Below are positions 1,832 to 58,900 of a stretch of DNA of 64,000 nucleotides, piece by piece. Position 1 is the first letter of the stretch; every line of letters starts with the position of its first letter. The stretch spans positions 1 to 64,000 of the forward strand of contig KZ538396.1 of the NCBI GenBank assembly GCA_000934665.2, in the 5' to 3' direction. The stretch comes from Catajapyx aquilonaris (Eukaryota). The notes under the pieces are model-generated. The model was not told where the DNA came from, made no database searches, and saw only the letters and a program-made list of their open reading frames with translations. Both the position numbers and the translations under genes were made by a program.

Positions 1832-1956
1832 ATCTTCAATGACACAAGAACGACTGAACTCACTTGCCGTTATGGCCCACTGAATACGATGTCTTGCAAA
1901 AGGCAGACTTCCAAGATATCCTGAAAGATTTCATGACTAAAAATTGTAGAAAGTGA
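1832..1956 (+). mobile_element. hAT transposase C-terminal (dimerisation domain) remnant
   Basis: Manual translation with one frameshift: SSMTQERLNSLAVMA..EYDVLQKADFQDILKDFMTKNCRK*, typical of hAT/ZMYM1-like C-termini. Confidence 0.6.
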
Positions 1957-2029
1957 ATGTTTAAAGTTTTCCCTTGGTTTATTAAAATAATTTTTATGTA
2001 ATATTTGTATAATAATGTGCAATATTGTG

Positions 2030-2242
2030 TAATAATATTTAATAATTGTTGTTTAATAATGTTTAATAATTGTTGTTTAATAATGTTTAATAATTGTTGT
2101 TTATTAACATTTAAAAATTTATTGTTGTTGTTTAATAATGTTTAATAATTGTTTATTAACACTTAAAAATTTATTATTGTTGTTTAATAATGTTTAATAA
2201 TTGTTGTTTATTAACATTTAAAAATTTATTATTGTTTAATAA
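2030..2242. repeat. AT-rich degenerate tandem repeat (TAATAATGTT / TTGTTGTT units)
   Basis: Repeated tttaataatgtttaataattgttgt blocks are directly visible. Confidence 0.8.
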
Positions 2243-3269
2243 CAACATATACGGTTTATTTCATGACAATAATAATAGTTGCTACCGTTTGTTTTAGTGT
2301 AAAAATTGGCTTATTAAAATAATTTTTGTTGGTTGGTAAAATCAAAAACGTATTATGAGATCATAGCATTTGCGAGGGCAAGGTCGTAGGTCGGTGGAAG
2401 CACTTCATACCTATAATAACAAGTTATTAGCTCTTGATAATAATAATAACAAAATCATGAATATGAATGTCGTATAGTCCTGCACTCCTGCTGCGCTTCG
2501 TGCGTCAATAGGTTATCGCTAATATACAAGTAACTTACTTAGTATCGCCCGTTGTTCTTTTTGTGTAGCTTTTTGCGTTATTTGGGTTCGTTATAAATTT
2601 ATACGGTACGGTATATGAATGGCCTAGTGTTAAGTATACATGTTCAGGCGGGGAGGTCGTGCGACCTTTCATATAGTGTTGAACTTGTTAATTCATGTTG
2701 GTATAGGCTATTCCAAAGCTTCAACCCCTATGAGCAAAGAATATTTTTATTATTGGGAGGCTGTGCATTTTAATAGACAGGCTCATTATGTTACCACAAT
2801 TAAATCTACGTCGACCATTTTCATGCTGTCTATAGCCTACAATAGAGGGCCTATGGTTATTATTAATGTATATGAAAAGGCCGGCACTGTTCCTGTTCGC
2901 AATAAACTCAACCGGGCACTAATATTGCCCAAGCAGGCAAATGACCGTGCCCATATCTCCCTCCGTGGTATTTTCTCATGAGCAGCTCCAACCATTGTGT
3001 TTTTTGTCACCAATTCATGTGCATGCATATAGTTGTTATTGTTAATAATAAATTCTGAGATGCTCGCGCCAGCACTTTTTCTAGGTATTACCAACAGCTC
3101 TTGGTATTACTGCCTGAACTGATGAAAGGAAAATGATGTCCCCATATCCAATGCTGGATTGCTGGTATATAGGCCTACATGACTGATAACTCAGTACAGT
3201 ACAGTCATATATAGGCCTACTGTAGGCTATATTTTGAAAATCAATCTCCAATCATTATGGGCAGGTTCT

Positions 3270-3500
3270 CTCTATGTCACACGAAAGTTTTCGGCGGACG
3301 GAATGGCGTGAAAATCAGGCACATTTCTGCGCCCGTATGTCCCACAATTTTAATGCAAAATATCGAGTATGGTACCATTGTAGAGGCGAAACCTTTTCGC
3401 AGTGCGCCAAGTTCGTGATTTTTCAGATTAACGGCGCGTTTCGCGACAAAAAAATAAAGTTCCCTCAAAAATGCGCCCACCGAATTTTTGATAATGCCTA
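3270..3500 (-). mobile_element. Fragment of the TTAA-target non-autonomous element family also at 51690-52144 and 55446-55954
   Basis: Reverse complement matches cgtgccgttaatctgaaaaatcatgaacta...tacaatggtacc of the other copies. Confidence 0.6.
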
Positions 3501-4428
3501 CTGCCTGTACTTTGTCAGTTACATTCACCTAAGCCTGTGTGACCTTGAACCCAAATTTTTCGCTTGCGGCGGGCTTGTATACGCTCTTTGCCGATTTCCC
3601 ATTTTACGACATGTTTAATATTAACATGTCTTTCATGCAATTCTAAAAATAAAGCTTATTTCGATATATCGATATTTTCGTTGATATATCGGCATATGAA
3701 TATAGTAAGATCCAAGAGTAAGATAGTCGAAGATAAGTTCACTCCCAAATATAAGATAATATCGGCTGGTTGGTACCTTGTTGGTACCGGTTGGTACCAG
3801 TTGTACGTTGTACCTGGTTGTACGGTAATGAGTTAATGACATATGTACGGTATACGGTAAAGTCGCTTTTGTGATGTAGGGCCTACTCAAAATAAAATTA
3901 AAATTAAAATTAAAATATATCCGACGTGCTTATTACAGCTATAGTATAGGAGGATTCCACTGTACGTGACTGTACTCTGTCAGTTACATTCACCTAAGCT
4001 TGTGCGACCTTGAAATCCCCCCCCCCCCNATCCCCCCCCCCCTTTCCCTCTTTGCTCGTTTTACCTTGGTTTTTATACCCTAGCTTTCCAGCGGCCGGGT
4101 TGCACATGCACATTTTGTCGCATTTTGTGCTGTTCTGAAAATTCCTTAGGCATATTTACGTGTATCTCATATTTTAACCTAATGTTTAATTCACAAAATG
4201 CCATGTTTTAAAATGTACAGTAATTTTTAGGCGAAATACGGTCAGTCATTTTGACACTCTAGTGGTGCGGTTGCTAAGGGTCAGGTTGCTGTCAACGCTG
4301 GTTGGCAACACTGTCCGGCGTCAAGATAAACAATCATGGCTTGAGAAGAGAGAACAATCACGGACGTGGAACAATCATGACAAGAGATTTACCTGCTTAA
4401 GCCTTCCGCCATAACTACAACTGCTGAA

Positions 4429-18648: not shown

Positions 18649-18687
<39 letters not shown>

Positions 18688-18689
18688 TA

Positions 18690-18756
<67 letters not shown>

Positions 18757-19218
18757 TATTATTATTATTTATTATTATTATTATTATTATTTATTATTAT
18801 TATTATTTATTATTATTATTATTTTTATTTATTTTTATTATTATTTTTATTTATTTTTATTATTATTTTTATTTATTTTTATTTATTTTTATTTATTTTT
18901 ATTTATTATTATTTATTATTATTTATTATTATTATTATTATTATTTATTATTATTATTATTATTATTTATTATTATTATTATTTTTATTTATTATTATTA
19001 TTATTTTTATTTATTTTTATTATTATTTTTATTTATTTTTATTTATTTTTATTTATTATTATTTATTTTTATTTATTATTATTTATTTTTATTTATTATT
19101 ATTTATTTTTATTTATTTTTATTTATTTTTATTTTTATTTATTTTTATTATTATTTATTTTTATTATTATTTATTTTTATTATTATTATTTATTATTATT
19201 ATTATTTATTATTATTAT

Positions 19219-19249
<31 letters not shown>

Positions 19250-30084: not shown

Positions 30085-31000
30085 TTATCAACTTTGCATT
30101 TCATGTTCAAAAATTCCAACGTGTCAATGTGTACAGTGTTGTGTAGTTCTTCACTAGGAGTGTGTTTCCCTTTGTCATATTTTTCACTTTGTCATATTTT
30201 TCACATGATCAACTTTGCCTTTCACGTTAAAAGTTTCATGTTCAAAACTTCTGTCAATGTGTACAAGATCAACTTTGTGTTTCACGTTAAGTTTCATGTT
30301 CAAAACTGCAACTTCGTCAATGTGTAATAGATCAATTTTGTCAATGTGTAAGAGATCAACTTTGCCTTTCACCTTAAAAGTTTCATGTTCAAAACTTCTG
30401 TCAATGTGTACAAGATCAACTTTGTCAATGTGTACGAGATCAACTTTGTGTTTCACTTTAATAGTTTCATGTTAAAAACTGCAATTTTATCAATGTGTAA
30501 TAATGTTCAATGTGTACAGTGTTGTGTAGTTCTTCACTAGGAGTGTGTTTCCCTGTCATATTTTTCACATGATCAACTTTGCCTTTCACGTTAAAAGTTT
30601 CATGTTCAAAACTTCTGTCAATGTGTACAAGATCAACTTTGTGTTTCACATTAAGTTTCATGTTCAAAACTGCAACTTCGTCAATGTGTAATAGATCAAT
30701 TTTGTCAATGTGTAAGAGATCAACTTTGCCTGTTTCATGTTCAAAACTTCTGTCAATGTGTACAAGATCAACTTTGTCAATGTGTACGAGATCAACTTTG
30801 TCAATGTGTACGAGATCAACTTTGTCAATGTGTACGAGATCAACTTTGTCAATGTGTACGAGATCAACTTTGTGTTTCACGTTAATAGTTTCATGTTAAA
30901 AACTGCAATTTTATCAATGTGTAATAGATCTTTGTGTTTCACATTAACAGTTTCATGTTCAAAACTGATACTTTGTCAATGTGTACAAGATCAACTTTTT
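30085..31000. repeat. Modular minisatellite with a 24-bp core (GATCAACTTTGTCAATGTGTACGA) and a ~390-bp higher-order duplication
   Basis: Tandem 24-mers at ~30765-30870; block 30124-30500 repeated from 30507. Confidence 0.9.
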
Positions 31001-36205: not shown

Positions 36206-36264
36206 ATGAGTGCGCCGGCGAAAACGAAGACAGGGAAGTCGAAATCGCCTACGAGTAACCAGAG
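36206..36264 (+). CDS. DPP3: DPP3 predicted first coding exon
   Basis: AAGATGAG start in a CpG-rich stretch, [19 protein letters not shown], donor AG|GTATGA; phase 2 matches the downstream exons. Confidence 0.6.
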
Positions 36265-42200: not shown

Positions 42201-45200
42201 AATGTCTCAACGCTCAAGGCGAACTTTTTGCGGAGCGAACGGTGATCAACGAGCTGAAGGTAGAAAATCCTTATCTCAAGGAGGTTGAGTACCTCTAACA
42301 GCGCATGGTTCAGTTAGAGAACTAATCACGCCGATGCAACCTTGTTTTCTACGGCCTAAAGGGTGTGCAGGGAGAGTCATGGGAGGACACTGAGAACAAA
42401 GTCCGATCGACAAACTCCACCCTAATTCTGGAAGTATCGAGTTTCAATGGGTACACTGGCTGGGTCACAGGGTCATTTTGAGCAGTTCACTATAGGTGCG
42501 TTTTTGATCCCTTGGGGTGGGCTACCAATGCACCGAATTTCAAGAAAATGGGTGAGGTCAGAATTTGACCTCTGCTCCCTTCAAAAGTGGGTCATGGGGT
42601 CATTTTGAGCAGGTCACTATAGGTGCGTTTTTCATCCCTTTGGGTGGGTTACCAATGCACCGAATTTCAAGAAAATCGGTGAGGTTGGAATTTTACGAGT
42701 TGGAAAATGTCCCAAGTTGTCAGGGCAAATCTCAAGACATCATAAATGATGTCCGTAGGCCCTGCAGGAAAGTATGCTCGGACATCATATGATGTCCGTA
42801 GTCGTCCAAGGGTTAAGGAATGCAAATCAAGCTTCATAGAAATTTTATTTACTATTTTTGACAATAGCCTAAATACTCAGGAAATACCGTCGAAATGGGG
42901 GCAAGTGAGAGTAACCCCAATATACAAAAGCGGCGATAGAGCGCTTCCTGAAAATTATCGTCCAATCGCAATTTTTCATGATACTTTTAAGTTATTTACA
43001 TCAATTTTGACAATCAGATTACAAAGTTGGGCAGAAGAATATACGATTCTCCCAGATTGGCAGGCTGCTTTCCGTAAATCACGTGGATGCATGGATCATT
43101 TGTTTACTTTTCATATCTCATCATTAGCCCTATACTAAAGAGAGATACCATTCTTTCCTCTCTTCTTTTTCCTCTTTGTTTCTCTCTCCATCTGTCCCAC
43201 CTCTGCATCTTCTTATAGCCAGATAGCCATAGTTGCTTTGGCTTCTTCTTAATAAACCTAAACCTAAACAAGTGATTGTAATAAGGTGTATAATTCAAAG
43301 GGGAGTGGCAAACTTTTGGTATGCCTCTGGTTCAATCTGTTGATGATAATCTCCATCGTATGTATCAGAAAGAGGCTTATGCATGCTCTTTATGGAAAAG
43401 CACTTATATCATTTTTGCTCCACAGGATTGCAAACCTGCCAGATCAAAATGAAGCTGAAGATGAACTGAGCCGTTACGACATATCATCTGTCCCAAAGCA
43501 GTTTCTTTTTCCAATGGACCAACCAGTGGTACAGATGGAATGCCAGACTGCTTTTGACAATTTAAAATATGATGAGAAAGAATACGCACACCATCTCGTT
43601 TGTGCAGCCTGGACAGGAAGTCTTATTGTGACCTTGCAGGTAGGATCAAAAATGCCCATGACTCATGTAATTTACCTAATTGATTCTGGTACATTGTTGG
43701 ACATAATCTCGTCGTACTGCTAGCGACATTTTCCCAAGCGGCAGAAGAACGAATCTTGCTCAAACGGCTTGCACTATCCATTGCTTCAATTAATTCTTCT
43801 GCCAGCAGCAGTAGGCAAGGGGATTTGGTATCCGGCTGCGAATCGGGAGGTCCAGGGATCGAATCCCCAGGCCGGCAACTCTGACCGTGGTTTTCTGTGG
43901 TTTCCCACGGTCACCCCAGGTGAATACCGGAGTTGTTTCCTAAATTAGTAGGCCACAGCCGCTTCCTGCCTTTCCTATCCCTGTCCCATACTGGAGGAGG
44001 TGCGGCGTTTGCGGGAGGTCTCTGCTCCGCATCTAGAGGGTCGTCTTGTCAACCTAGCCCTCTGAGGGACTGCACACGTCCTCCACCATGAGACATTGCA
44101 CTTGCACCACTGTCCCCCCCTCTATCCCAGCACTGGAGAGTCAGAAAATGGTGGAAAAAAAAATCTCCCCTACATTGGCCAGAAGGTCTCAAGGGTGTAA
44201 ATAAAAATAAATAAATAAATAAATAAATTCTTCTGCCACTTTGGAAAATGTCGCTAGCAGTAAGACGCGATTAATGTCCAACACTGTACCATGGTCTGCC
44301 TAAGTAGACAAGGATAGACATATGGATTAGCTAACAGTGCTGGGAAATGGGAGAGAGCGAAATCAGTTATAACTAAATGGAATGTAACAGATTTGATGCC
44401 AATTTTTATCATGATCAAAACTCATCACTTAGCATGCTGGACTATATTCGTTTTATTTATGTCCATGTCTTATTATCCCATGCTGTAATGACATGGCATG
44501 GTGAGCACAGTATAACTCCTGAGCTAAACACGTTACCCCCTATTTGTTCCTTGGTTTTGTGTCTGCATAAGCAACATGGTCATTCACTAGTCTATTTGAA
44601 AATGTCAGAATGGACTTGGGCACATGTACTTTCCAGCAGACGGAGGGCAGGGTCAGTGTGTATGGGCCTTTAAGGGGGCACTACAGTCATCGACCTTCAA
44701 AACTTCGTTTTTTTGTTGTTTTTTTTTGATAAAAAAATCAAGCGTCTTTTCCTTCGTCGAATGCAGCTAACCGCGTCCCGAAATTCAAAAAATTGGAGCG
44801 TCGGGAGCGGACACCTGGCAACGACCTTCGGTTCCCCCTCCTCTCCCTACCTACCACTGGCATGAGCGCCATCAGGTGCTGCTCCCGCGCGGATGCGGAG
44901 GCACTACGCCGGTCCTGCTGGCCACAGCTTGTCTGTGTGACAGTAACGTATTTTTTTGAATCGCATTATCGCTCTGTTACATTACCCTACTTTTAACTTT
45001 AAACGCGTTTTTCTCAGTTTGCCAGATTTGGACACTGTCGACATCAGCCAGGCCACAAAAATGTAGCTGCGGACTTCCCACTTCACCAGATTTATCCTCA
45101 AACATGGCGCTATCATTCAGCCCTAAAGAATTAGGCTGCTCGAACTACTTCTATTTTTACTTTAATTAAATGTTTTCTCAAAACTGCTTAATTTGGTACT

Positions 45201-48200
45201 TATCGTCAAAAAAATACTAAAACGATTTCAAAAATGATAATTCTGGGTCAAATGAAAACTACATGCTCAAGTAAGCCTGAGGTCCAATCTGACTGTTGTA
45301 GGGTGACCCCAGCGTCCTAAATTGTGTCGACAGTGGCGTGACGTCACACGGCCCTGGAGGCCCTTGGACACACGAACGTGATTCGATTATAGGCGCTAAT
45401 AGGTCTTTGACTTATGTACTATATACGCCAAATTGTTTCATACCCCCGGGGTATGAAACAATTTGTCGTATACCTAGGTATAGTGCTATACGACAAATTG
45501 TTTCATACCCCGGGGGTATGAAACAATTTGGCGTATATAGTACATTCATGAAAATGAGGTCCCAACTTCTTGTCTCTAATGGGTTTTTTTTTTGGCGATT
45601 TTTTACAAAACCCTTGATTTTGACTGTAGTGCCCCCTTAATGTCTAATTGTGTCCTGTCAAGGTGTGTCATGGATGCATTTTGTAACCTCTTTTCAGACG
45701 TCACCAGAGTCTCCATTCATCTTTGCTATGCTTCGTCGTCTGTTCACCATCCAGCCTCCACATGTACTAAAGCCTGCTCTCTTGGAGAAGGGGTTCGACG
45801 AGGATGAGATCCAGGCATTCATGGTCTACACTTCAGCAATCTTCACCAATATGGGGAATTACAAGGGGTTTGGGGACACCAAGTTTGTGCCCAACCTCTC
45901 TCCAACCCGGTTTGAGTCTATCATCATGGCTACTGATGCATGGGAATATGAGGACCAGTTGGTCTTGGAATGCTGGTCCTTGATCAGAGTACGAATGTAT
46001 ACCATTCATGACCATGTGCAACAGCTAGGCTTGGGTGAAAAGGGAATAACCACCTACTTCTCTTCTAACTGCACCCCAGAGGATGCAGCCAGGGTGTCAT
46101 CATACCTAAAGGATCGAAAAATGGAGGCATACAACCAGCGTGTGTTCAAGGTAGAGGAAGAAAACAGGATTACTTACTTCATCAAGCTGGCTTCTGTCAC
46201 TATAGGCTCAGAGACAGAGGTGACTGTGATGTCTGAAAGGCATTCAAGGACTTCAATAATATCTGAAAGGATTTCAAGGACTTCACTAATGTCCAGAAAG
46301 GCTTCAATAATGTCCGGAAAGCCTTCATCGATTTCAATACACTCTGTATTGCCTTCAATGAATTCAATGACTTCAATGACGTCTGAAATGCCTTCAATGA
46401 CATCAGTAACGTCTGATGTACCTTCAATGACTTCAATAATGTCTGGAAAGCCTTCAACAATGTCAATAGTGTCTGGCAAACCTTCAGCAATTTCATTAAT
46501 GTCAGGAAAGCATTCAATGATGTCAATGATGTCAACAATGTCTTCAATGCCTCCAATGCCTGCAATGCCTGCAATGCCTGCAATGCCTGACATGCCTGAC
46601 ATGCCTGACATGCATGAAAAGCATGAAAAACCGGAGGAGCCTGAAACCCCTGTAACAACTGAAACCACTGAAACAGGTGAAATTCTTGAACCTCCCGAAG
46701 ATGAAGAAGAAACGATAGTAATATACGAGGTGTACAGGGGTGACTACTCACCTATCTTGGATAGGGTCAATATGGCCCTGGATAACGCAATAGAGTCAAC
46801 ATCTAGTGCTCTGCAGAAGAAAATGTTGGGTGAATACATGCGGAGCTTTGAAACTGGTGTACTTCAGGTGAATATTTATACAGTGTGATTTAACTAAATT
46901 GACAATAGCAGTTAATTTTTCTTTTTTTCTTTTTTTAGCTCGAGACTATTTATTTTAAGCTGCTTTATTCAACAGTTACTATTAAGCCCTGTTTCCAGTG
47001 GCACTATTTTTATTCTGGACAAAATGCAAGCCAGGAAACGCTACAGTTTCACCTGCAGAATTTTTCAAAGTTGCTGTGACATACCCGTCCTATTAGGGTT
47101 AAAATTAAAGCCAAAATTCCTGCATTCCAGATCTCTTATTGCAGGAATGAGTAGTAAATGTAATGCATATTTACTATTGTCTGATAGTGATAACTTATCA
47201 CATTTTCATTCCAGTCCTATGGATGGTGACCTGTTGATATTTTTAAATGGATACACATTCATAAGCTTACACTGTATTTTGACAATTCCTCCTAACCTCA
47301 CCATTTTTTCCTGTGTTCCAGCATCACAAGGAGGGTTCACGCCTGTGGATCCAGGACAAAGCTCCAGCCGTTGAAACATACATGGGCTTTATTGAAACCT
47401 ATCGAGATCCAGATGGACAGAGGGGGGAGTTCGAAGGGTTTGTGGCTGTTGTCAACAGGCCCATGTCAAAGAAATTTGCACATCTTGTGGAGAGAGCTAG
47501 TGACTACATTTCAAGGCTTCCGTGGCCCAAAGAGTTTGAGAAGGATGAATTTCTCCAGCCAGACTTTACTTCACTTGATGTCATTGCCTTTGCTGGGTCA
47601 GGAATTCCAGCGGGTATAAACATCCCAAATTGTGAGTCCGGTGGAATGAAAGCTTGATGTAGTTGCATGCACTATAGGCATTGAATTTGGCTGTACTGAA
47701 AGTAATTAACCCAATTTTCATACTGGAGTTAATTTTGCGACAGTAATGTACTGCTCTCCAATAACCTCTGCATTGCTTTATTCCCATTTTTATGACTCAT
47801 CCATCCTGATAGATGCATTTTTATTACCTGCACAGGAATTTTAAAATCCATATGCAATGGAACACCATTCCAGATGTTTGTAAACATTAATGTGCAGCAT
47901 TCTGGACTGTATCATTAGTAGAGGTCACTTAGGTATGTGTGTACCGTGGCAGGCATAAAGATGTGGACAGTAGTACTTCCCTTGCTAGTAGAAGCGCAGC
48001 CAGTGTCATCATTATACAATCGACATACAGTATTCTTGGCATGTCCTACTAGTATGCCTACCTTGGTGCTGTTGGTAAGGGGTGAAGGTCAGGCTAGGAA
48101 GCCCCCAGGCAGAGGAAGACCTCAGGTATACCGTCCACGTTTTTATGTTTGCGACTGTACATACTATTTGCCCAATTTACAGGAGCATGAATCATGACTT

Positions 48201-51200
48201 ACTGAACCCAACAGTGGATTTTTGGTTTGCATATAAATGCATATTTAAGGTTTTACAATATTTGACTAATGATGAAAAATGCATGTTTCAAGTTTTTTAT
48301 GTAATCAAGTTTTTTTTTTTAACATTCGAAGAACTATTTTTATTGACTGATTTGTTTCCCGCTCCATTGTGGACTCTTTGTGTGGGGGTTTACAAAAGTG
48401 CCCTAGGTGAAAATCACTGGATCTGGCACCATTGGTTTCGCTCTAGATTCATGCACCCGTCCTATTAGGGCTGAAGTGTCCGAGACATACAAACCCGAGT
48501 TCCATCTCGAGAGAGCCATGTACCGCCTCATATGCTATGCACGAGAAGGTGACGTCATCCTATTCCGACATCTATGCGGGGTTTTATATGCCGCTTCCAC
48601 CCCTCGAAAAAATCCAAGATTATTGATTGCTCAGACCCTCTGATGAATTATGAAAACATTAAGTGTCTGTTAAAAATTTGTATAGGTCTTGTTTAAATGG
48701 AGGTAATGTGAGTTACCAGGTGCAAAAAATTACATTAGGTTGTGTCGGGGACACAAGCCGCAGCATTGGCGGGCTCAACCTACATTATGTTTCACTTTTC
48801 TCGACTATAATGGTGGGGGCATGCAGGCGTGGATACGTCTTTAAAATCGGATCAGGGGGCATGCAGGCAAACTCGAGCATTACAGAAAAGCGTCGGCTAT
48901 AGCATACTCAGTTATAATAGACTGTAACGCTTTTCTATAACGCTCGAGTTTGCCTGCATGCCCCCGCCATGGGCCCCCTGGTGGGCCCCTGCTGTAACGC
49001 TTTTCTGTAACGCTTGAGTTTGCCTGCATGCCCCCTGATCCGATTTTAAAGCTGTATCCGCGTCAAAAAAAAAGTGGCTCAGGTGGCAAGGGGGCACCCG
49101 CCTAGAGCTCGGAGCACACAGTGGTCAATATCAGAGAAAACACGAACGAACATTATAGCTCCTCAACTAAACCGTTTAAGTACGTAAAAAACACATCTCC
49201 CCATGTTTTCAGGGTCGGCTGATTCCAATTTTTAGGTTATTTTGAACATAGACCTACAGGGTGTACCAAAAACAGGATGGAATTTAATAATCTGCAGAAT
49301 AAGCGGTACAAGTAAGTGAATCAAATGTTTCCCCTGTTTTTATGGTCGCTGATTTCGATTTTGAGGTTATTTTGAACCTAATTTGATACCTACAGGGTGT
49401 ACTAAAAACTCACTATGGAATTTAAGAACGTGTAGAATAAACATTACAAGCAGGTGAAAATAACATTTCCCGATGTTTTTGCGGTCCTAATTTTGATTTT
49501 TAGGCTATTTTGAACCAGGTTGTCAGCAAGTAATAAGGCCAGTGTTGATGTATCTGTAAGCTTAATTGGGGATGTTGTATAAGTAATGATGGTTGAGGGG
49601 ATATTATTAAGAAGGAAGTTGCAGCTGCTGCTTTAGAACTTTAACTAGGTAAATCACCTGGGGTTGATGCTATTTCTTCGGAAATGGTGAGGTGTGGCGG
49701 GGATGATGTGGTTAATTTTTTGGCTAATTTATGTAGGGTTTCTTTTGATAATGGTGTAGTTCCTAGGGATTGGAGGGATGCTATTATAGTACCTCTGTAT
49801 AAGGGTAAGGGAGATGTGTGTGACCGCAAGAATTATCGTGGCATTAGTTTGTTAAGTGTACCAGGGAAAGTGTATGCTAAGGTTTTGATAGAAAGAGTTA
49901 AGAGGGTCACAAGTCAGAGAATACTGAATATTCAGAGTGGGTTTATGTCGGGTAAGAGTTGTGTAGATCAGATATTCTGTATGAGACTCGTGATAGAAAA
50001 GTATTTAGCTGTAAACAAGAAGGTTTTTGTTGCCTTTGTAGACTTAGAGAAAGCATATGACACAGTGAGTAGGGAAGGTTTGTGGGAAGTTCTGAGTCTC
50101 TATGGAGTGAAGGGCCGCCTGTTGGAGGCTGTAAAGTCATTGTATGAAGAGAGTAGAGCTTGTGTTAGAACTTGTAGGGGTTTCTCTGACTGGTTTAACA
50201 TTAGTGTTGGGGTTAAGCAGGGTTGTGTCATGTCTCCCTGGTTATTTAACTTGTACTTAGATGCATGTGTAAGGGAAGCTATGGTTGAAGGTGTAGGAGT
50301 GCAGTTTGGTGAGGAGATAGTCACTTGCTATATGCAGATGATTCTGCCCTTCTGGCGGAGAGTGAGGCTGATTTACAGTTGATCCTATGCAAGTTAGATA
50401 ATGTTTGTGAAAAGAGGGGTATGAGGATTAATGTAGATAAGACTTAAGGCAGTGGCGTAGGCAGAAATTTTTTTCGGGGGGGGGCCATGGCCGATCGGTC
50501 CGTTTCATAATATTGTAACCTATTGTAAGACTTTTTTGACGTATCATAACAGTATTCGAGTCGGAGAGGGGAGGGGGAGGATTTCATAAACCGCGAAAAT
50601 TTTCTTTACTGTTACATAATGTAATGCATTTATTGCTTTTTCTTAACATTTCGGGGGGGGCCCGGCCCCCCCGGGCCCCCCCCCCTGCCTACGCCACTGC
50701 TTAAGGTATTGGTATTTGAGAGGGGACAGCAGGTTTCTCCTTGTATGTTGCAGGTATGAGGAAAACTGGTTGAGCAGGTCAGCCAGTTTGTATACCTGGG
50801 TAGTGTCCTTGAGAGTAATGGTAGAATTGATGGGGAAATAGACAGGAGAGTTAATTCTGGGTTGAAATAATAGGTGCCTCAAGTAAGTTTTAGAAATCCA
50901 CGATCTGGTGGCTATACCAGCATGCTGGTCTAAGCGAGGTATACCAGTATAAGGTGAGGTTTTCTTACCATCTCTATGACAATTATTATTACTCAAAGGA
51001 ATGCACCATGTTCTACGGTACAGATACAGCCCAGGACACTTCTATCGCCTGAGACATCCCCATAAGATCATTCGTTAAGTTCAGATTTCACAGAAACATT
51101 TTCAATTAAAAGTGCAAGGGTGCAAGAAGGGAAGCATACCTACCAGGATATTTCACACGTTTGGTTTGGATGTTATTATCTGAGTGAGGCTTCTCAGACA

Positions 51201-54200: not shown

Positions 54201-57200
54201 CATTGTAGTGCATCATTCCTTTTCAGAATGGAAATTTTCTGATTATCTCTTGCTGTGGGCTTTGTAGCACTATTATACAGTTTGAATAATCATGTTGTTA
54301 CTTATATATTGAATAGAAAGTTAAATCCAAGAATATAGAATATGCATGGAATATTTAAGGTTGAAGATTTTAGGTCTACAAGGTGATAATGTGACCTAGA
54401 AATGTGAAAGTAGAATTGCAAGAGGTTCCCTCTGTTAATAACCATGGTTGTTGTGTTGCATTTGTACTTTTCTCTTTCATATCATCATTATGCGCAATAT
54501 CTTAAATTTTAATGTGGAGACAATATCATTGTGCAGTGGTGTCAACAGGCTGTGAAAGGATAAAGCAATTTTCCCACAGTAATATTTCGTTAATGTAAGT
54601 TATCCAAAAATTATGGTCCATTGGTGTCTTGCAAGTTGTCTAGGCTCATGCATAATGTTCTTATTTTACTTCACGTGTGAATCAGTTTTATGGAATTCTG
54701 TTTTCTGTTTACTTAACTGTCATTTATGAGTACTTTTTGTTCCAGATGATGAAATTCGCCAGACCGAGGGCTTTAAGAATGTGTCCCTTGGGAATGTTAT
54801 TCCAGCCAGTTACAAGGACCTGAACTTGCCTTTCCTCACCAAGCAGGATCAGGCCATACTTAATTCGTTTCGAGTCCCCGCATTTGAGGTGAGTTTGTTC
54901 ATTTCTAATTGTACCCATGGAATTTTGTCACATTAGGATATGTAGCCTGTAACTGACATCTAAGTTTCAAATTCTCCAATGTGTGTGCTATTAGCCCAAT
55001 TTATACTGAAAGAGTGATGTTTTAAAGGGACACTCCACTCAAAATACAAGTTGGGTTCTAAAAATCGGGCAAAAAATCCTGATTTCGAGGGTATAAGCAG
55101 TTTTTCTTAGAGACGAACGGTAAGGCCAGTGTGAAAGCTGGAAGTGTGTCGTTCGAAAACCGCGCGCGGGGAAGGTGGGCGCAGGTGGCGACGCCACCAG
55201 AGTGGAACCGGGCGGAACTAGAGAATGCATCCTGGCGCGGCAGTTGTTTGTTGAGCACATTCTCTACTTCTCCGGTTTGCCGCGGGGTGCTGTTGTATCG
55301 CCCTTCTTAGCAGACGACGTGTGTAGATATATGATTTTCCGTGTTACCGTTGGGTGTAGGAAAAAACCGATTGCACATTCGGAATCAGGATTTTTTGCCC
55401 GATTTTTGGGGGCCAACTTGTATTTTGAGTGGAGTGTCCCTTTAAGGAGGCGCAGTAGCAAAAATACGGTAGGTGCATTTCGAATGGAACTGTATTTTTT
55501 TGTCACGAAACGTGCCGTTAATCTGAAAAATCATGAACTAGGTGCCCTGTGCAAAGGTTTGGCCTTTACAATGGTACCTTACTCGATATTATTGCATTAA
55601 AATATATTGTGGACATATGGGCACAGAAGTGTGCCTGACTTTGTGCGTGTTTCCTGCCGCCATGTTATTCAAATGGGCTCTTCGGGAACACCAATTTCCT
55701 CTCACTTCAACTTGATGAAAAGGTAATTTCTAGTCCGAAAATGGAAAAAAGATGAACTATAGTAGGTGCCCTGTGCCAGATCATCTACTATTTTTGGGTG
55801 CAATTTTTGTGTCGATTGCACCATTTTTACGGCTGTACAGCCACAGAAGAGTAGACGTGTCGAATCCCCATATGCTGCCTATGCATAAGCAAGTTTGTTT
55901 GGGTTGTCGCCAAAGGCTCCGATTGTTACCGAATTTTTTTGGTACTGGGCCACCTTAACGTGTGTACCTTAATTAAGTTGTATAATATTCTGTTCCACCA
56001 CACACAAAAAATTAATGCTTTTTGAACCACTGGTACTGTACATCAGAAAACATACTAAATATTGATGGCATTCTCTCTCCCCAGGTACAGGTGGGTTTGC
56101 ATGAGCTCTTAGGCCATGGTTCAGGGAAGCTATTCCGTGAGGATGAAGAAGGCAATGTAAACTTTGAGACAGAAAAAGCTGTTGATCCTTTCACAGGCGA
56201 AAGGATATTTTCATGGTACTTACCTGGAGAGACCTATGACTCCGAGTTCACTAGCTTGGGGTCAGCATACGAGGAGTGCCGAGCAGAATGTGTCGGCCTT
56301 CTCCTCTCCCTTGACAAAGATATCCTGGCCATCTTTGGGTATGATGATAGGGTTGCAGAGAATATCAGGTATGCAAACTGGCTGGCTTTGCTGTGGAATG
56401 CTCTGGGGAGAGCCCTTGAGATGTACCAGCCCAGCAAGGGTGAATGGATGCAGGCACACTGCCAGGCTCGCTATGTGATCCTGCAGGTGCTTCTAGAAGC
56501 GGGACAGGGCTTGGTTGATGTCAGGGAGGTGATTGGAACAGATGGTGAACCTGACATTAGGATTATACTCAACAAGGATAAACTTGATAATGTTGGCAGA
56601 GAAGCAATCAGCCAGTTTCTTGTGAAGCTGCAGGTGAGTGGCAATGGTGGGGAAATAATGATAATGCACCAAATAAGTCTGAGCCCTCAATAAGGTTTTT
56701 TCCTTGTCTCGCACCTGCCATATTATTCTGGCAGCATCATTGACATGATTACATTCCCTAATTGACCCACATTATGATGTGTAATTTTGGTTCTGCAGCA
56801 TGGTCTGTCAGCTACAGAGAAACACACTTACAGTGTTGAACTGTATTCATGTTGGTTTGTAGCTTTATGTAGCATGGTGATCAGATTGACTATTAAGGAG
56901 TTCATTGGACTTTCCTGGCCGTTAAGGCTCTTAAGCCCTTCCACTAAAGGAAATACACAAAATCAACTACAACAATAATTTTAAAATCTCTGGAAATCAA
57001 GCGTCGAGCTTCCAGTCAAGTCGTCCAGCCATCAGTCCTATTCTTCCCCAAGTCCATGCATGCACCACCCCGCCCTCAGCCTCAACTCCTGTTCTCATAT
57101 CAGGTCTCAGATAAGACTGACTGTGCGTAGAAGTTACATGAATTATTATGATGAAATAAGGCAGGCCACTGATATCAATATGAGCAAGTCCAGGAACAAG

Positions 57201-58900
57201 TTTGCTAAAAGTCTGGACAATTCATAGTCACTAGTGGATCATATGATTCACGGCCAAGTAGCAGGAGAGCCGGGTGATATTCTGAAAGGAAACCTTGCCC
57301 AAAACCTCTTTGGGTCCAAGTGTGATGAGGGTTGGTGACACAGGGATGTGGGATATAGGGAGACAGCATAAGGAAAAGAAATGTAATAATGACTTGGAAT
57401 GCACTGTTTCCACGATATTTCCATCTGCATGTGAGCTCAATTCTTAAACAGTGTAACCAAGCATTCCTGCCACAGTTTCAGAATCATATCATATGTAACC
57501 AGCTACAGACTGTCAAGCATTAGTGCAGTGCTGCATTACTGCAGAGGTCGTAATATTCTGATGCAAAGATGCAATTTTCACTCCAAAATTGTTATACGCA
57601 CTCCAAACTGAGCCTTGGAGTGCAAACCTTGTGCCTGGACAAAAAAAGAAAGAAAAAAAATCAACATTTCAACCCCAGTTACTGTATGCATAGTTTTCTA
57701 TTAAAAGTCAAATTCCACCCACCACCTTTTCCGAATACTGCCCCCTCCAGGCAATCCACCGTGATAACTGAGGGTGATAAGAATCTCGGAAAGATGTGGC
57801 ATTGCCATATGCCATGTATTTGACAACAAAATACATCAGCAATTATCATAAGCAAGGTAATCTTTCTGAGATGCCAATCATCCTCGGTCATCATGATGGG
57901 CTGTCCGTAGTGGTGGAATTCAGATTAGGCAGTGGGTAGGATCAAGCTCTTGGTAGGATTGATCTCTTAACAGAAGATGAACATAACATGATTAATATTG
58001 GATTGGGCTGAAGCTAAGATTGTTAATTTCAATAGGTGTAAGTTAATTACGCGTAGGTGACCAAGGGCTGTGATGGTATGTTTATTGCATTTGGAGTATT
58101 TCATTTTATTTCACTTTGATAATTGCATTGTTGAGTTCAGGGAACTTGACTGATGGCCAATTGTATGAACACAAATGGGGGACAAAGTCTCAGATTGCCG
58201 GATTATCCATTGTGAATACATTGAGATGAGCAGAGGTTTTCCCTAATTTGCTTTCATACGACTGGCCCTAGTTCATTATGAGGTGAGAACTCCAGCTAAA
58301 ATTGCTAACATCCTGCTTTCTTGGAATTAATGAAAGACTATATCATCACTGAAGGACACTGAATCTATAAATTGCTGCATGTGAATACATCTTTCTCACT
58401 TCACAGGTATACAAGAGCACAAAGAACGTGGATGAGGCCAGAGCCCTGTTCGCGAAGTACAGTGCTGTGACTGATGAAGACCCCTATCCGTTTTTGAGGT
58501 GGAGGGACATTGTCGTGGCTAAAAAGCAACCCATGAAGATGTTTGTTCAGCCAAACACTCGCATGGATGAGAGTAAGTCTTGAAGTTAGGGCCAGTTGTA
58601 TTTGAGGAAATTAGGATACATATCTGATTTTGTGTTGGTATTCATAATACACAAAGCAACAGTGTTGCAGATTTTCTCCTTAATTTACTTTCATACTACT
58701 GGCCCTAAGCTGTCATTTTGCTTGTAATGTCTTGTTACTTACCCTCAATCTTGCTTTCACCTGCAGAAGGAGATATCACCCTTACAAACTATGAGCCAAC
58801 ACATGAAGGCCTGATCCAATCCTGGGTTGATCGTTACACCGAGGAGATGGATGACATGCTGTACCAACTTGCAATGGATGATAAGGAATTCTTTGACTGA
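36206..58900 (+). CDS. DPP3: Dipeptidyl peptidase III (M49); exons 36206-36264, 41786-41836, 43426-43639, 45698-46867, 47322-47631, 54746-54888, 56085-56633, 58407-58572, 58767-58900; ~931 aa
   Basis: [89 protein letters not shown]. All introns GT-AG and phase-compatible. The first two exons are less certain. Confidence 0.93.
36882..36969. mobile_element. 88-bp hairpin mini-element (CTAT..ATAG termini) at a GTAC site
   Basis: GTA|CTATGGGCGCCAAAA...TTTTGGCGCCCATAG|TAC. Confidence 0.85.
37077..38654. mobile_element. 1.58-kb foldback made of two inverted copies of a transposon 3' end with a SWIM zinc-finger remnant
   Basis: AAA|GGAC...GTCC|TTT; both arms translate to [32 protein letters not shown](L)[11 protein letters not shown]. 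Confidence 0.8.
39590..40135 (-). mobile_element. LINE 3' end fragment
   Basis: ORF 39794-40108 ([28 protein letters not shown]); 3' end ggccctaacaacggggta followed by an A-rich tail. Confidence 0.7.
40140..40390. mobile_element. 250-bp foldback with CACTA..TAGTG termini
   Basis: CACTACACTG..CATCACTGGTGAGTCTCTCATGG versus CCATGAGAGACTCACCAGTGATG..CAGTGTAGTG; no clean TSD. Confidence 0.7.
41031..41298. other. Assembly gap (N run) between poly-G and poly-C
   Basis: Run of n. Confidence 0.99.
41786..41836 (+). CDS. DPP3: DPP3 predicted 51-nt exon 2
   Basis: Long polypyrimidine tract plus [19 protein letters not shown]; donor AG|GTGATA; symmetric phase 2-2. Confidence 0.5.
42100..43135 (+). 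mobile_element. LINE fragments (ORF1 remnant and RT N-terminus) with a TTAA-ending DNA element between them
   Basis: [59 protein letters not shown]; the insert ends GTCCAAGGG|TTAA and shares repeats with 39010-39300. Confidence 0.7.
43426..43639 (+). CDS. DPP3: DPP3 exon 3
   Basis: ..[40 protein letters not shown]; donor GTAGGA. Confidence 0.9.
43692..44286. mobile_element. MITE at a GTAC site, split by a SINE (43805-44225)
   Basis: ~60-bp TIRs; SINE flanked by 13-bp TSD aattcttctgcca and ending in (TAAA)n. Confidence 0.75.
44674..45636. mobile_element. TTAA-flanked non-autonomous element (Kolobok-like termini)
   Basis: TTAA|GGGGGCACTACAGTCA...TGACTGTAGTGCCCCC|TTAA. Confidence 0.8.
45419..45540. 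mobile_element. 122-bp double-hairpin mini-element (CTAT..ATAG termini) at a GTAC site
   Basis: A-A'-spacer-A-A' organisation; the whole unit is also palindromic. Confidence 0.85.
45698..46867 (+). CDS. DPP3: DPP3 exon 4 including the Met/Ser-rich repeat insert
   Basis: [30 protein letters not shown]-[insert][20 protein letters not shown]; 1170 nt, phase 0-0. Confidence 0.92.
47322..47631 (+). CDS. DPP3: DPP3 exon 5
   Basis: [32 protein letters not shown]; donor GTGAGT. Confidence 0.95.
48827..49062. repeat. Inverted repeat with a duplicated right sub-arm
   Basis: ggggcatgcaggcaaactcgagc..agaaaagcgt versus two copies of acgcttttct..gagtttgcctgcatgccccc. Confidence 0.7.
49565..50900 (+). 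mobile_element. RTE-clade LINE RT fragment
   Basis: [50 protein letters not shown]; near-identical to the 6083-7332 copy in their overlap. Confidence 0.92.
50450..50699. mobile_element. hAT-like MITE inserted in the RTE copy
   Basis: CAGTGGCGTAGGCAG...CTGCCTACGCCACTG flanked by duplicated cttaagg; absent from the other RTE copy. Confidence 0.85.
52149..53190. mobile_element. 1042-bp foldback, TTAA TSD, GAG..CTC termini (Sola3-like)
   Basis: TTAA|GAGGGCCGGG...CCCGGCCCTC|TTAA; ~500-bp arms and a ~38-bp spacer (~52649-52687). Confidence 0.88.
54746..54888 (+). CDS. DPP3: DPP3 exon 6 (not in the ORF track)
   Basis: Manual translation (Y)[47 protein letters not shown]. Confidence 0.95.
55026..55441. 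mobile_element. TTAA-flanked MITE (Kolobok-like termini)
   Basis: TTAA|AGGGACACTCCACTCAAAATACAAGTTGG...CCAACTTGTATTTTGAGTGGAGTGTCCCT|TTAA. Confidence 0.85.
55446..55954. mobile_element. TTAA-flanked non-autonomous element
   Basis: TTAA|GGAGGCGCAGTAGCAAAAA...TTTTTGGTACTGGGCCACC|TTAA; related copy at 51690-52144. Confidence 0.75.
56085..56633 (+). CDS. DPP3: DPP3 exon 7 (catalytic HELLGH, EECRAE)
   Basis: [39 protein letters not shown]. Confidence 0.97.
58407..58572 (+). CDS. DPP3: DPP3 exon 8 (not in the ORF track)
   Basis: Manual translation [41 protein letters not shown]; donor GTAAGT. Confidence 0.93.
58767..58900 (+). CDS. DPP3: DPP3 terminal exon
   Basis: [23 protein letters not shown]...FFD*. 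Confidence 0.92.

Follow-up and report, generated by a model that had tools for sequence, protein, structure and literature searches.

The DPP3 gene and its exon 3 insert

The 64,000-nucleotide stretch analyzed here (Catajapyx aquilonaris, GenBank assembly GCA_000934665.2, contig KZ538396.1, positions 1 to 64,000 of the forward strand; "the window" in the following) carries on its plus strand a complete gene for DPP3, the dipeptidyl peptidase III of peptidase family M49, with eight exons and an open frame of 914 codons. Within its third exon, an in-frame array of tandem repeats places 167 residues where human DPP3 has 17. This insert is probably a coding minisatellite that expanded in this lineage and that the enzyme, complete in all other respects, tolerates in a flexible hairpin loop.

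The exons were searched with tblastn using the cockroach DPP3 (P0001) and were found in order; their borders were set from the sequence and from transcript contigs, and AG/GT borders are present at all eight exons (Table 1). Exon 3 alone matches the Pfam family Peptidase_M49 (PF03571) above the gathering score (E 5e-20, 71.9 bits, cutoff 21), and tblastn aligns the remaining exons with DPP3, in agreement with the original prediction, which had named the gene as DPP3 from the letters alone. That the catalytic motifs are preserved was likewise borne out, as both zinc motifs in exon 6 are intact and of the HEXXGH and EEXR(K)AE types. Further residues, whose catalytic or substrate-binding roles we in part presume, are conserved in a MAFFT alignment to a Pan sequence (human numbering): W300, E316, Y318, E327, E329, N391, N394, R399 and F404 as well as H450, E451, H455, E507, E508, E512, H568 and R572. 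The substrate-binding residues to be checked were chosen partly from PMC9967118 and PMC9079729. The Pan isoform (P0065) has an internal insertion, and its numbering is unusable past about residue 600. The gene passes the DPP3/M49 sequence tests except for the metazoan-conserved Arg669, which is treated below. The DPP3 with its insert is probably still an active enzyme. Exon 1 encodes a Lys/Ser/Thr-rich N-terminal extension, a separate exon 7 kb upstream that is backed by the loose end of a contig from sequencing run X5.

The position of the insert was defined by phmmer against PDB chains. Residues 1-175 of the protein encoded by exon 3 (the exon-protein) correspond to human DPP3 52-226 and residues 343-389 to human 244-290, which leaves residues 176-342 unaligned against human 227-243. 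The human loop length of about 25 residues that had been given earlier agrees with the 17 of this alignment. Counted from IKLASV to YEVYRGDYS, the segment comprises 175 codons with 25 Met, 35 Ser, 19 Thr, 19 Pro and 18 Glu, and contains no Phe, Trp, Tyr or Cys at all; outside the insert, DPP3 has 22 Met in 739 residues. Charge is distributed asymmetrically, with 7 Lys and Arg versus 4 Asp and Glu in the first 50 residues and 2 versus 17 in the last 50. Printed codon by codon, the segment runs from a basic block including SERHSRTS and MSRKAS through SMTS, MSGKPS, MPA, MPD and HEK to an acidic end. The coordinates, frame and composition described previously, including the approximate codon count and the about 25 Met, could thus be reproduced, and the drift from basic to acidic units is visible as well.

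The repeat anatomy is equally clear. Tandem Repeats Finder (TRF) reported periods of 9, 18, 21, 30, 60 and 69 nt across 46232-46675, with 67-100% matches; periods 9 and 30 among them correspond to the 9-nt unit and the 30-nt higher order that had been proposed, and 60 nt is a further higher order. Every spacing of a repeat family in the array is a multiple of 3. A CTGAAA core is common to units at both ends of the array, which fits a descent from one 9-nt unit. Moreover, the array mixes old units that are about 24-29% different with identical 9-nt copies encoding three MPA and three MPD, which points to continuing slippage. Because an ATG lies within the 9-nt unit, the insert acquires both its MxxM spacing and its high Met content. 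It holds ten overlapping MX1-2MX1-2M motifs, versus none in the rest of DPP3; shuffling gave a mean of 1.6, and none of 2000 shuffles reached ten. Five His are located in or beside the Met-Pro block.

Table 1. Exons of DPP3 and blocks of the exon 3 insert in the window
Feature	Position	Strand	Evidence
DPP3 exon 1, from ATG	36206..36264	+	Loose 5' end of X5 contig matches exactly; ATG and GT donor read; frame joins exon 2
DPP3 exon 2	43426..43639	+	tblastn with P0001; X5 contig joins 43636 to 45695 over GT..AG intron; AG/GT borders
DPP3 exon 3, 390 codons, holds the insert	45698..46867	+	PF03571; X5 contigs spliced at both ends
Segment without human DPP3 counterpart, 167 codons versus human 227-243	46223..46723	+	phmmer to PDB 3t6b_A; predicted disorder (pLDDT 33-66)
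Basic Ser/Arg/Lys block	46229..46330	+	TRF period 30, 81% matches; codon print; predicted weak helix at exon-protein 184-205
Ser/Met/Thr block with 30- and 60-nt units (SMTS, MSGKPS, SMMSMMS)	46331..46546	+	TRF periods 30 and 60, 76-78% matches
Met-Pro block: MPP, three MPA, three MPD, then MHEKHEK	46547..46630	+	TRF period 9, 8-9 copies, 91-92% matches
Acidic Pro/Glu/Thr block with ETGE at 46670-46681	46631..46708	+	Codon print; TRF period 9/18
DPP3 exon 4	47322..47631	+	X5 contig joins 46864 to 47319 over GT..AG; tblastn 72% identity to P0001
DPP3 exon 5	54746..54888	+	tblastn; X5 loose end behind 47635 runs into exon 5
DPP3 exon 6, zinc motifs HELLGH and EECRAE	56085..56633	+	tblastn; translation; residues checked against Pan sequence
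DPP3 exon 7; codon 58533-58535 is Met at the human Arg669 equivalent	58407..58572	+	tblastn; translation; alignment column
DPP3 exon 8 including stop codon	58767..58901	+	tblastn; translation

Transcript support and distribution among homologs

The array is not an artefact of the assembly. Over 45624-48000, an independent contig of the DNA run X1 shows 0 differences, although X1 may stem from the source sample itself, and run X5, from another sample and another study than the likely source, reproduces 45695-46864, again with 0 differences. None of the five sequencing runs found for the window is recorded as RNA, and the run type of X5 is not on record; we infer its transcript nature from the behaviour of its contigs, as distinct from reads, over 43400-48000: they skip from 43636 to 45695 and from 46864 to 47319 at GT..AG, and the X1 DNA contig runs through. 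Two X5 contigs cover 45695-46316 and 46312-46864. Their ends lie inside the array and share only 5 nt; continuity of the RNA across 46312-46316, which no contig bridges, is therefore probable rather than directly seen. No joint inside exon 3 is listed for the X5 contigs. Since contigs spliced at both flanking introns carry the whole insert, the insert is exonic and kept in the spliced message. Accordingly, two possibilities that the original prediction had named as refuting it, namely that the insert is spliced out or that the gene is not expressed, are not borne out by these contigs, which would not reveal minor isoforms. No difference in the array was found between the two samples, a comparison made on contigs that in the case of X5 end inside the array at 46312-46316.

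Next to this stands the question of how widespread the insert is. Counted from the V of LASV as far as RGDY, the segment is 18-35 aa long in 119/119 homologs, compared to 179 aa here; one fused model of 1371 aa was left out of the initial 120 homologs. A second search added 81 homologs 600-1000 aa long, in which the gap between the flanking anchors was at most 25 aa versus 175 here. A long loop at the insert site is therefore absent in all 200 homologs (119 + 81), none of which exceeds 35 residues, and the insert is not the widespread feature that had been raised as a third possible objection.

Searches for the insert itself gave a consistent picture. A word-indexed search with residues 172-345 only returned one weak PDZ match (E 1.1e-3) among 2853 candidates. 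In a phmmer search against 1.84 billion representatives, the best stretch extended past query residue 197 in none of the 150 matches listed, for each of which the best stretch was considered; among the matches listed, identity to any representative was at most 61%, and the fragments retrieved from them (P0121, P0251 and others) proved to be distant or duplicated. The ESM Atlas contained no usable match to the insert. A metagenome scan yielded four loci, all of which match the Met-Pro repeat only and none of which is DPP3. One of these, L003 (positions 1846-3699 of a metagenome contig), encodes a copper-resistance multicopper oxidase that was retrieved only through its likeness to the Met-Pro block. 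A full-text literature search found no publication on such an insert in DPP3, as judged from the listing of results only.

Nearer relatives were searched with exon 6, where the best identity at full coverage was 63% (P0274), and the loop of P0274 is of normal length. In the phylogenetic tree, the protein falls within the arthropod DPP3 clade (SH-like approximate likelihood ratio test, 100; 29 rows), inside which its position is not resolved. The best identity to a homolog is 56% over 713 columns, and its terminal branch is the longest in the tree (0.70 versus a median of 0.24).

Predicted structure and deviations in the folded body

The structure of the exon-protein was predicted with AlphaFold2 on an alignment of exon 3 with 51 N-terminal DPP3 fragments (A2), which replaced a full-length alignment (A1) in which the insert fell onto the C-terminal halves of the homologs. 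The flanks were predicted with a local distance difference test score (pLDDT) of 88-98 and contain strands at exon-protein 157-165, 175-180 and 339-349. Across 171-338, the pLDDT drops to 33-66 and is below 50 for 209-286; a weak helix at 184-205 is the sole predicted structure in the insert. Foldseek matched the model to human DPP3 (3t6b_A, E 8.8e-17). A low-scoring insert between confident flanks indicates that, in the model, the insert is a long disordered excursion from a lower-lobe beta-hairpin, and the earlier suggestion of a disordered segment is upheld by the prediction.

According to PMC9079729, human DPP3 217-236 belongs to a set of four highly flexible, fast-exchanging regions that sit in the hinge loop or at domain surfaces; more than 60% of its amide hydrogens exchange in 10 s. 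The insert site matches this surface region, which supports the location in a flexible surface loop that had been assigned from the letters.

Deviations are also found in the folded body of the protein. At 2.98% Met (22/739), it exceeds every one of the 119 homologs, for which the mean is 1.60% and the maximum 2.59% (z +4.2). No such increase is seen for other residues encoded by AT-rich codons, and Leu is underrepresented. At columns conserved to at least 95%, the protein deviates in 10/203 cases, which ranks it second of 120 (median 0.5%), and in four of the ten the new residue is Met. One of these four is located at the equivalent of human Arg669, where 114/119 homologs have Arg. According to PMC9967118, Arg669 binds the C-terminus or P3' of the substrate, and the human R669M variant raises Ki about 5- to 10-fold while function is not abolished. 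The natural Met at this position suggests that the S3' subsite has changed in this lineage.

A further motif of interest is ETGE, by which vertebrate DPP3 and NRF2 bind KEAP1. It is present in the acidic tail of the insert (residue 416), whereas the canonical vertebrate site (residue 668 here) reads FTGE. In PMC10532290, the ETGE loop of human DPP3 (residues 462-484) is given as the KEAP1-binding region, and mammalian DPP3 is linked to oxidative-stress signalling. In both cases, ETGE sits in a flexible, acidic and exposed segment; however, the insert carries it in the other lobe, the lower one, and at another position. Among 197 homologs, 78 contain ETGE, mostly vertebrates. Shuffling by composition produced the motif in 0.6-0.8% of trials, a figure to be read with the fact that the motif was spotted post hoc, and its occurrence in the insert may be a chance event.

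Compared to canonical metazoan DPP3 (human; PDB 3FVY, 3T6B; PF03571), the protein shares the fold of the flanks, the zinc motifs, the checked substrate residues and a place in the arthropod clade, whereas the repeat-built loop, the Met at Arg669, FTGE and the Met-rich body set it apart.

The surroundings of the gene contain other repeats. In intron 2, a nested perfect palindrome at 45404-45548, containing CCAAATTGTTTCATACCCCCGGGGTATGAAACAATTTG, resembles a miniature inverted-repeat transposable element (MITE). The depth of the DNA contigs shows it to be multi-copy, and one of them jumps over 45415-45540. The same intron holds a very high-copy repeat at 43708-44323, with a summed contig depth of about 125,000 in X1 and about 7,500 in X5. 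The 7-kb intron 4 harbours a retroelement, as seen from a fragment of a reverse-transcriptase open reading frame (ORF) at 49645-50382 (plus strand; Pfam RVT_1, E 1.3e-22). Upstream of DPP3, we found a 600-bp (ATT)n microsatellite (18649-19249) and a 24/84-nt satellite array (30246-30992). A POLA2 neighbour was absent from the window in a tblastn search with the fused Strigamia model P0084.

Origin of the insert and alternative explanations

Low-complexity and tandem-repeat inserts in loops of conserved proteins are a known phenomenon, with examples in the housekeeping proteins of Plasmodium. The DPP3 insert belongs to it: here, too, an in-frame array with units in multiples of 3 lies in a flexible loop, is predicted to be disordered, is absent in homologs and is composed of units that diverge in a neutral-like manner. 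It differs in the dominance of Met, which is rare for such inserts, and in the ordered drift from basic to acidic.

Regarding the mechanism, a 9-nt unit with a core of the CTGAAA / TCAATG type would have expanded by replication slippage or unequal exchange within the beta-hairpin turn in the lower lobe of an expressed arthropod DPP3, and the 30- and 60-nt higher-order duplications would have come later. Translation of the array would then give the loop about 150-165 disordered residues with much Ser, Met, Thr, Pro and Glu, the N-terminal end being basic and the C-terminal end acidic. As the unit lengths are multiples of 3 and the exposed, flexible loop is far from the zinc site, the enzyme would be expected to tolerate the array.

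The original prediction had taken the frame that stays intact across diverged units as a sign of selection, and this part was not supported. Across 46227-46709, three of the six frames lack stops, which means that the repeat as such accounts in part for the open frame. In the two remaining sense frames there are 15-16 stops; a frameshift of any kind would thus abolish the catalytic C-terminal half, irrespective of what the insert is worth. Between adjacent 30-nt units, 18/14/19 differences fall on codon positions 1/2/3, and the corresponding numbers for all pairs are 74/70/67 (n = 7 in-register units). The ratio of nonsynonymous to synonymous differences per site (pN/pS, Nei-Gojobori) among the units amounts to 0.96 between neighbours and to 1.20 over all pairs. 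With an even spread over codon positions and a pN/pS close to 1, the divergence of the units is neutral-like. The roles that the original prediction had put forward, as a Met-oxidation or Cu(I) sensor, phosphorylation array or condensate module, are possibilities only.

Several points weigh against a mechanical origin with mere tolerance. The pN/pS value is derived from 7 short units with 41.7 synonymous sites, which are paralogous to each other, and it is blind to selection on composition. The best identity to a homolog is only 56% over 713 columns, too low for gauging the age of the insert or constraint among orthologs. The diverged units suggest that the array has persisted for long without being deleted. 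In addition, the Met enrichment of the folded body is left unexplained by the mechanical origin of the Met in the insert, and the block-wise segregation of charge together with ETGE could indicate a function.

The most serious alternative, which we nevertheless regard as unlikely, is a selected, functional disordered module that would regulate DPP3 through Met oxidation with or without self-association, through Ser/Thr phosphorylation or through binding of a partner, e.g. Keap1 via ETGE. The abundance of Met and the complete lack of aromatic residues and Cys speak for such a module, as do the separation of charges towards the two ends, the Met-rich body, the presence of ETGE in the insert of a protein whose canonical site reads FTGE, given that the human ETGE loop binds KEAP1 (PMC10532290), and the fact that an array old enough to have diverged units has been kept. 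There is also a documented precedent for a Met-rich low-complexity redox sensor, namely the low-complexity domain of yeast Pbp1, the ataxin-2 protein, which forms a redox-controlled condensate (PMC8394241). Both segments are Met-rich and poor in aromatic residues; however, there is no sequence relation, and an internal loop of an enzyme is compared with the C-terminal domain of an RNA-binding protein. The functional reading is further weakened by the pN/pS close to 1 among the units without an excess of third-position changes, by the Met periodicity, which is a by-product of the 9-nt unit, and by the post hoc recognition of ETGE. Taken overall, a function of the insert thus appears unlikely, though deserving of attention.

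A more specific version joins the separate deviations into one adaptation, in which the insert would be a selected, redox-responsive Met loop and the Met of the body part of the same adaptation; oxidation would switch self-association or the pairing of the basic with the acidic end, and ETGE would be an independent Keap1 site. We consider this combination quite unlikely. If true, the coupling of DPP3 to the oxidative-stress response would have evolved on two separate occasions.

It is improbable, too, that the genome has a canonical DPP3 at another locus and that the present gene is an additional, diverging copy whose constraint has been relaxed or altered, the insert being one symptom of this. 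The longest terminal branch, the second rank for deviations at conserved columns and the replaced Arg669 would fit this explanation. Yet the ORF is intact over all 914 aa with regular exon borders, the gene is spliced and transcribed, the zinc and catalytic residues are all kept, and the long branch may reflect an unsampled lineage; by tblastn, the 64-kb window contains only this one DPP3.

For an exitron or another regulated retained sequence, a substantial share of the transcripts would have to be spliced to a DPP3 of canonical length. A crude scan for splice signals revealed donor-like sites at 46220 and 46677, each scoring 7/9, and an acceptor-like site with 10/14 pyrimidines (G at 46700), and contigs are blind to minor isoforms. 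However, the sole pair flanking the insert (46220 to 46700) would remove 481 nt, which shifts the frame and produces a premature stop. The same scan found no clean in-frame GT..AG pair removing the insert; the three in-frame pairs have weak donors (6/9), and none excises it cleanly. Neither candidate site interrupts the X5 contigs, for which, again, no internal joint is listed. Based on these results, we judge regulated removal of the insert to be distinctly improbable.

Mets motifs, as in the CopA/PcoA, CueO and Ctr1 proteins, are typical of oxidising compartments such as the periplasm or the extracellular space. A Cu(I)- or Ag(I)-binding domain of this kind, which would make DPP3 copper-responsive, is highly improbable despite the ten Mets-like motifs that shuffling never reached, the His around the Met-Pro block and the near-identical local DMPDMPDM in the very similar Met-rich loop of the CopA/PcoA-type metagenomic oxidase L003 (TIGR01480, 869 bits), because DPP III is described as cytosolic, the N-terminus here is hydrophilic without a signal-like hydrophobic stretch (read from the translation, without a predictor), and the resemblance to the oxidase is compositional, not a matter of homology, with a periodicity that stems from the 9-nt DNA repeat.

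Read as a tolerated minisatellite expansion, the locus provides a clean, transcript-supported case of a conserved metallopeptidase that has absorbed about 150 predicted-disordered residues in its most flexible loop. It also cautions against taking a frame that stays open through a repeat as evidence of selection. The insert site would be useful as a natural permissive site for the engineering of DPP3 loops. If the Met enrichment of the body, the natural counterpart of R669M and the ETGE of the insert should be connected, they would point to a lineage-specific re-tuning of the substrate range of DPP3 and of its link to redox signalling.

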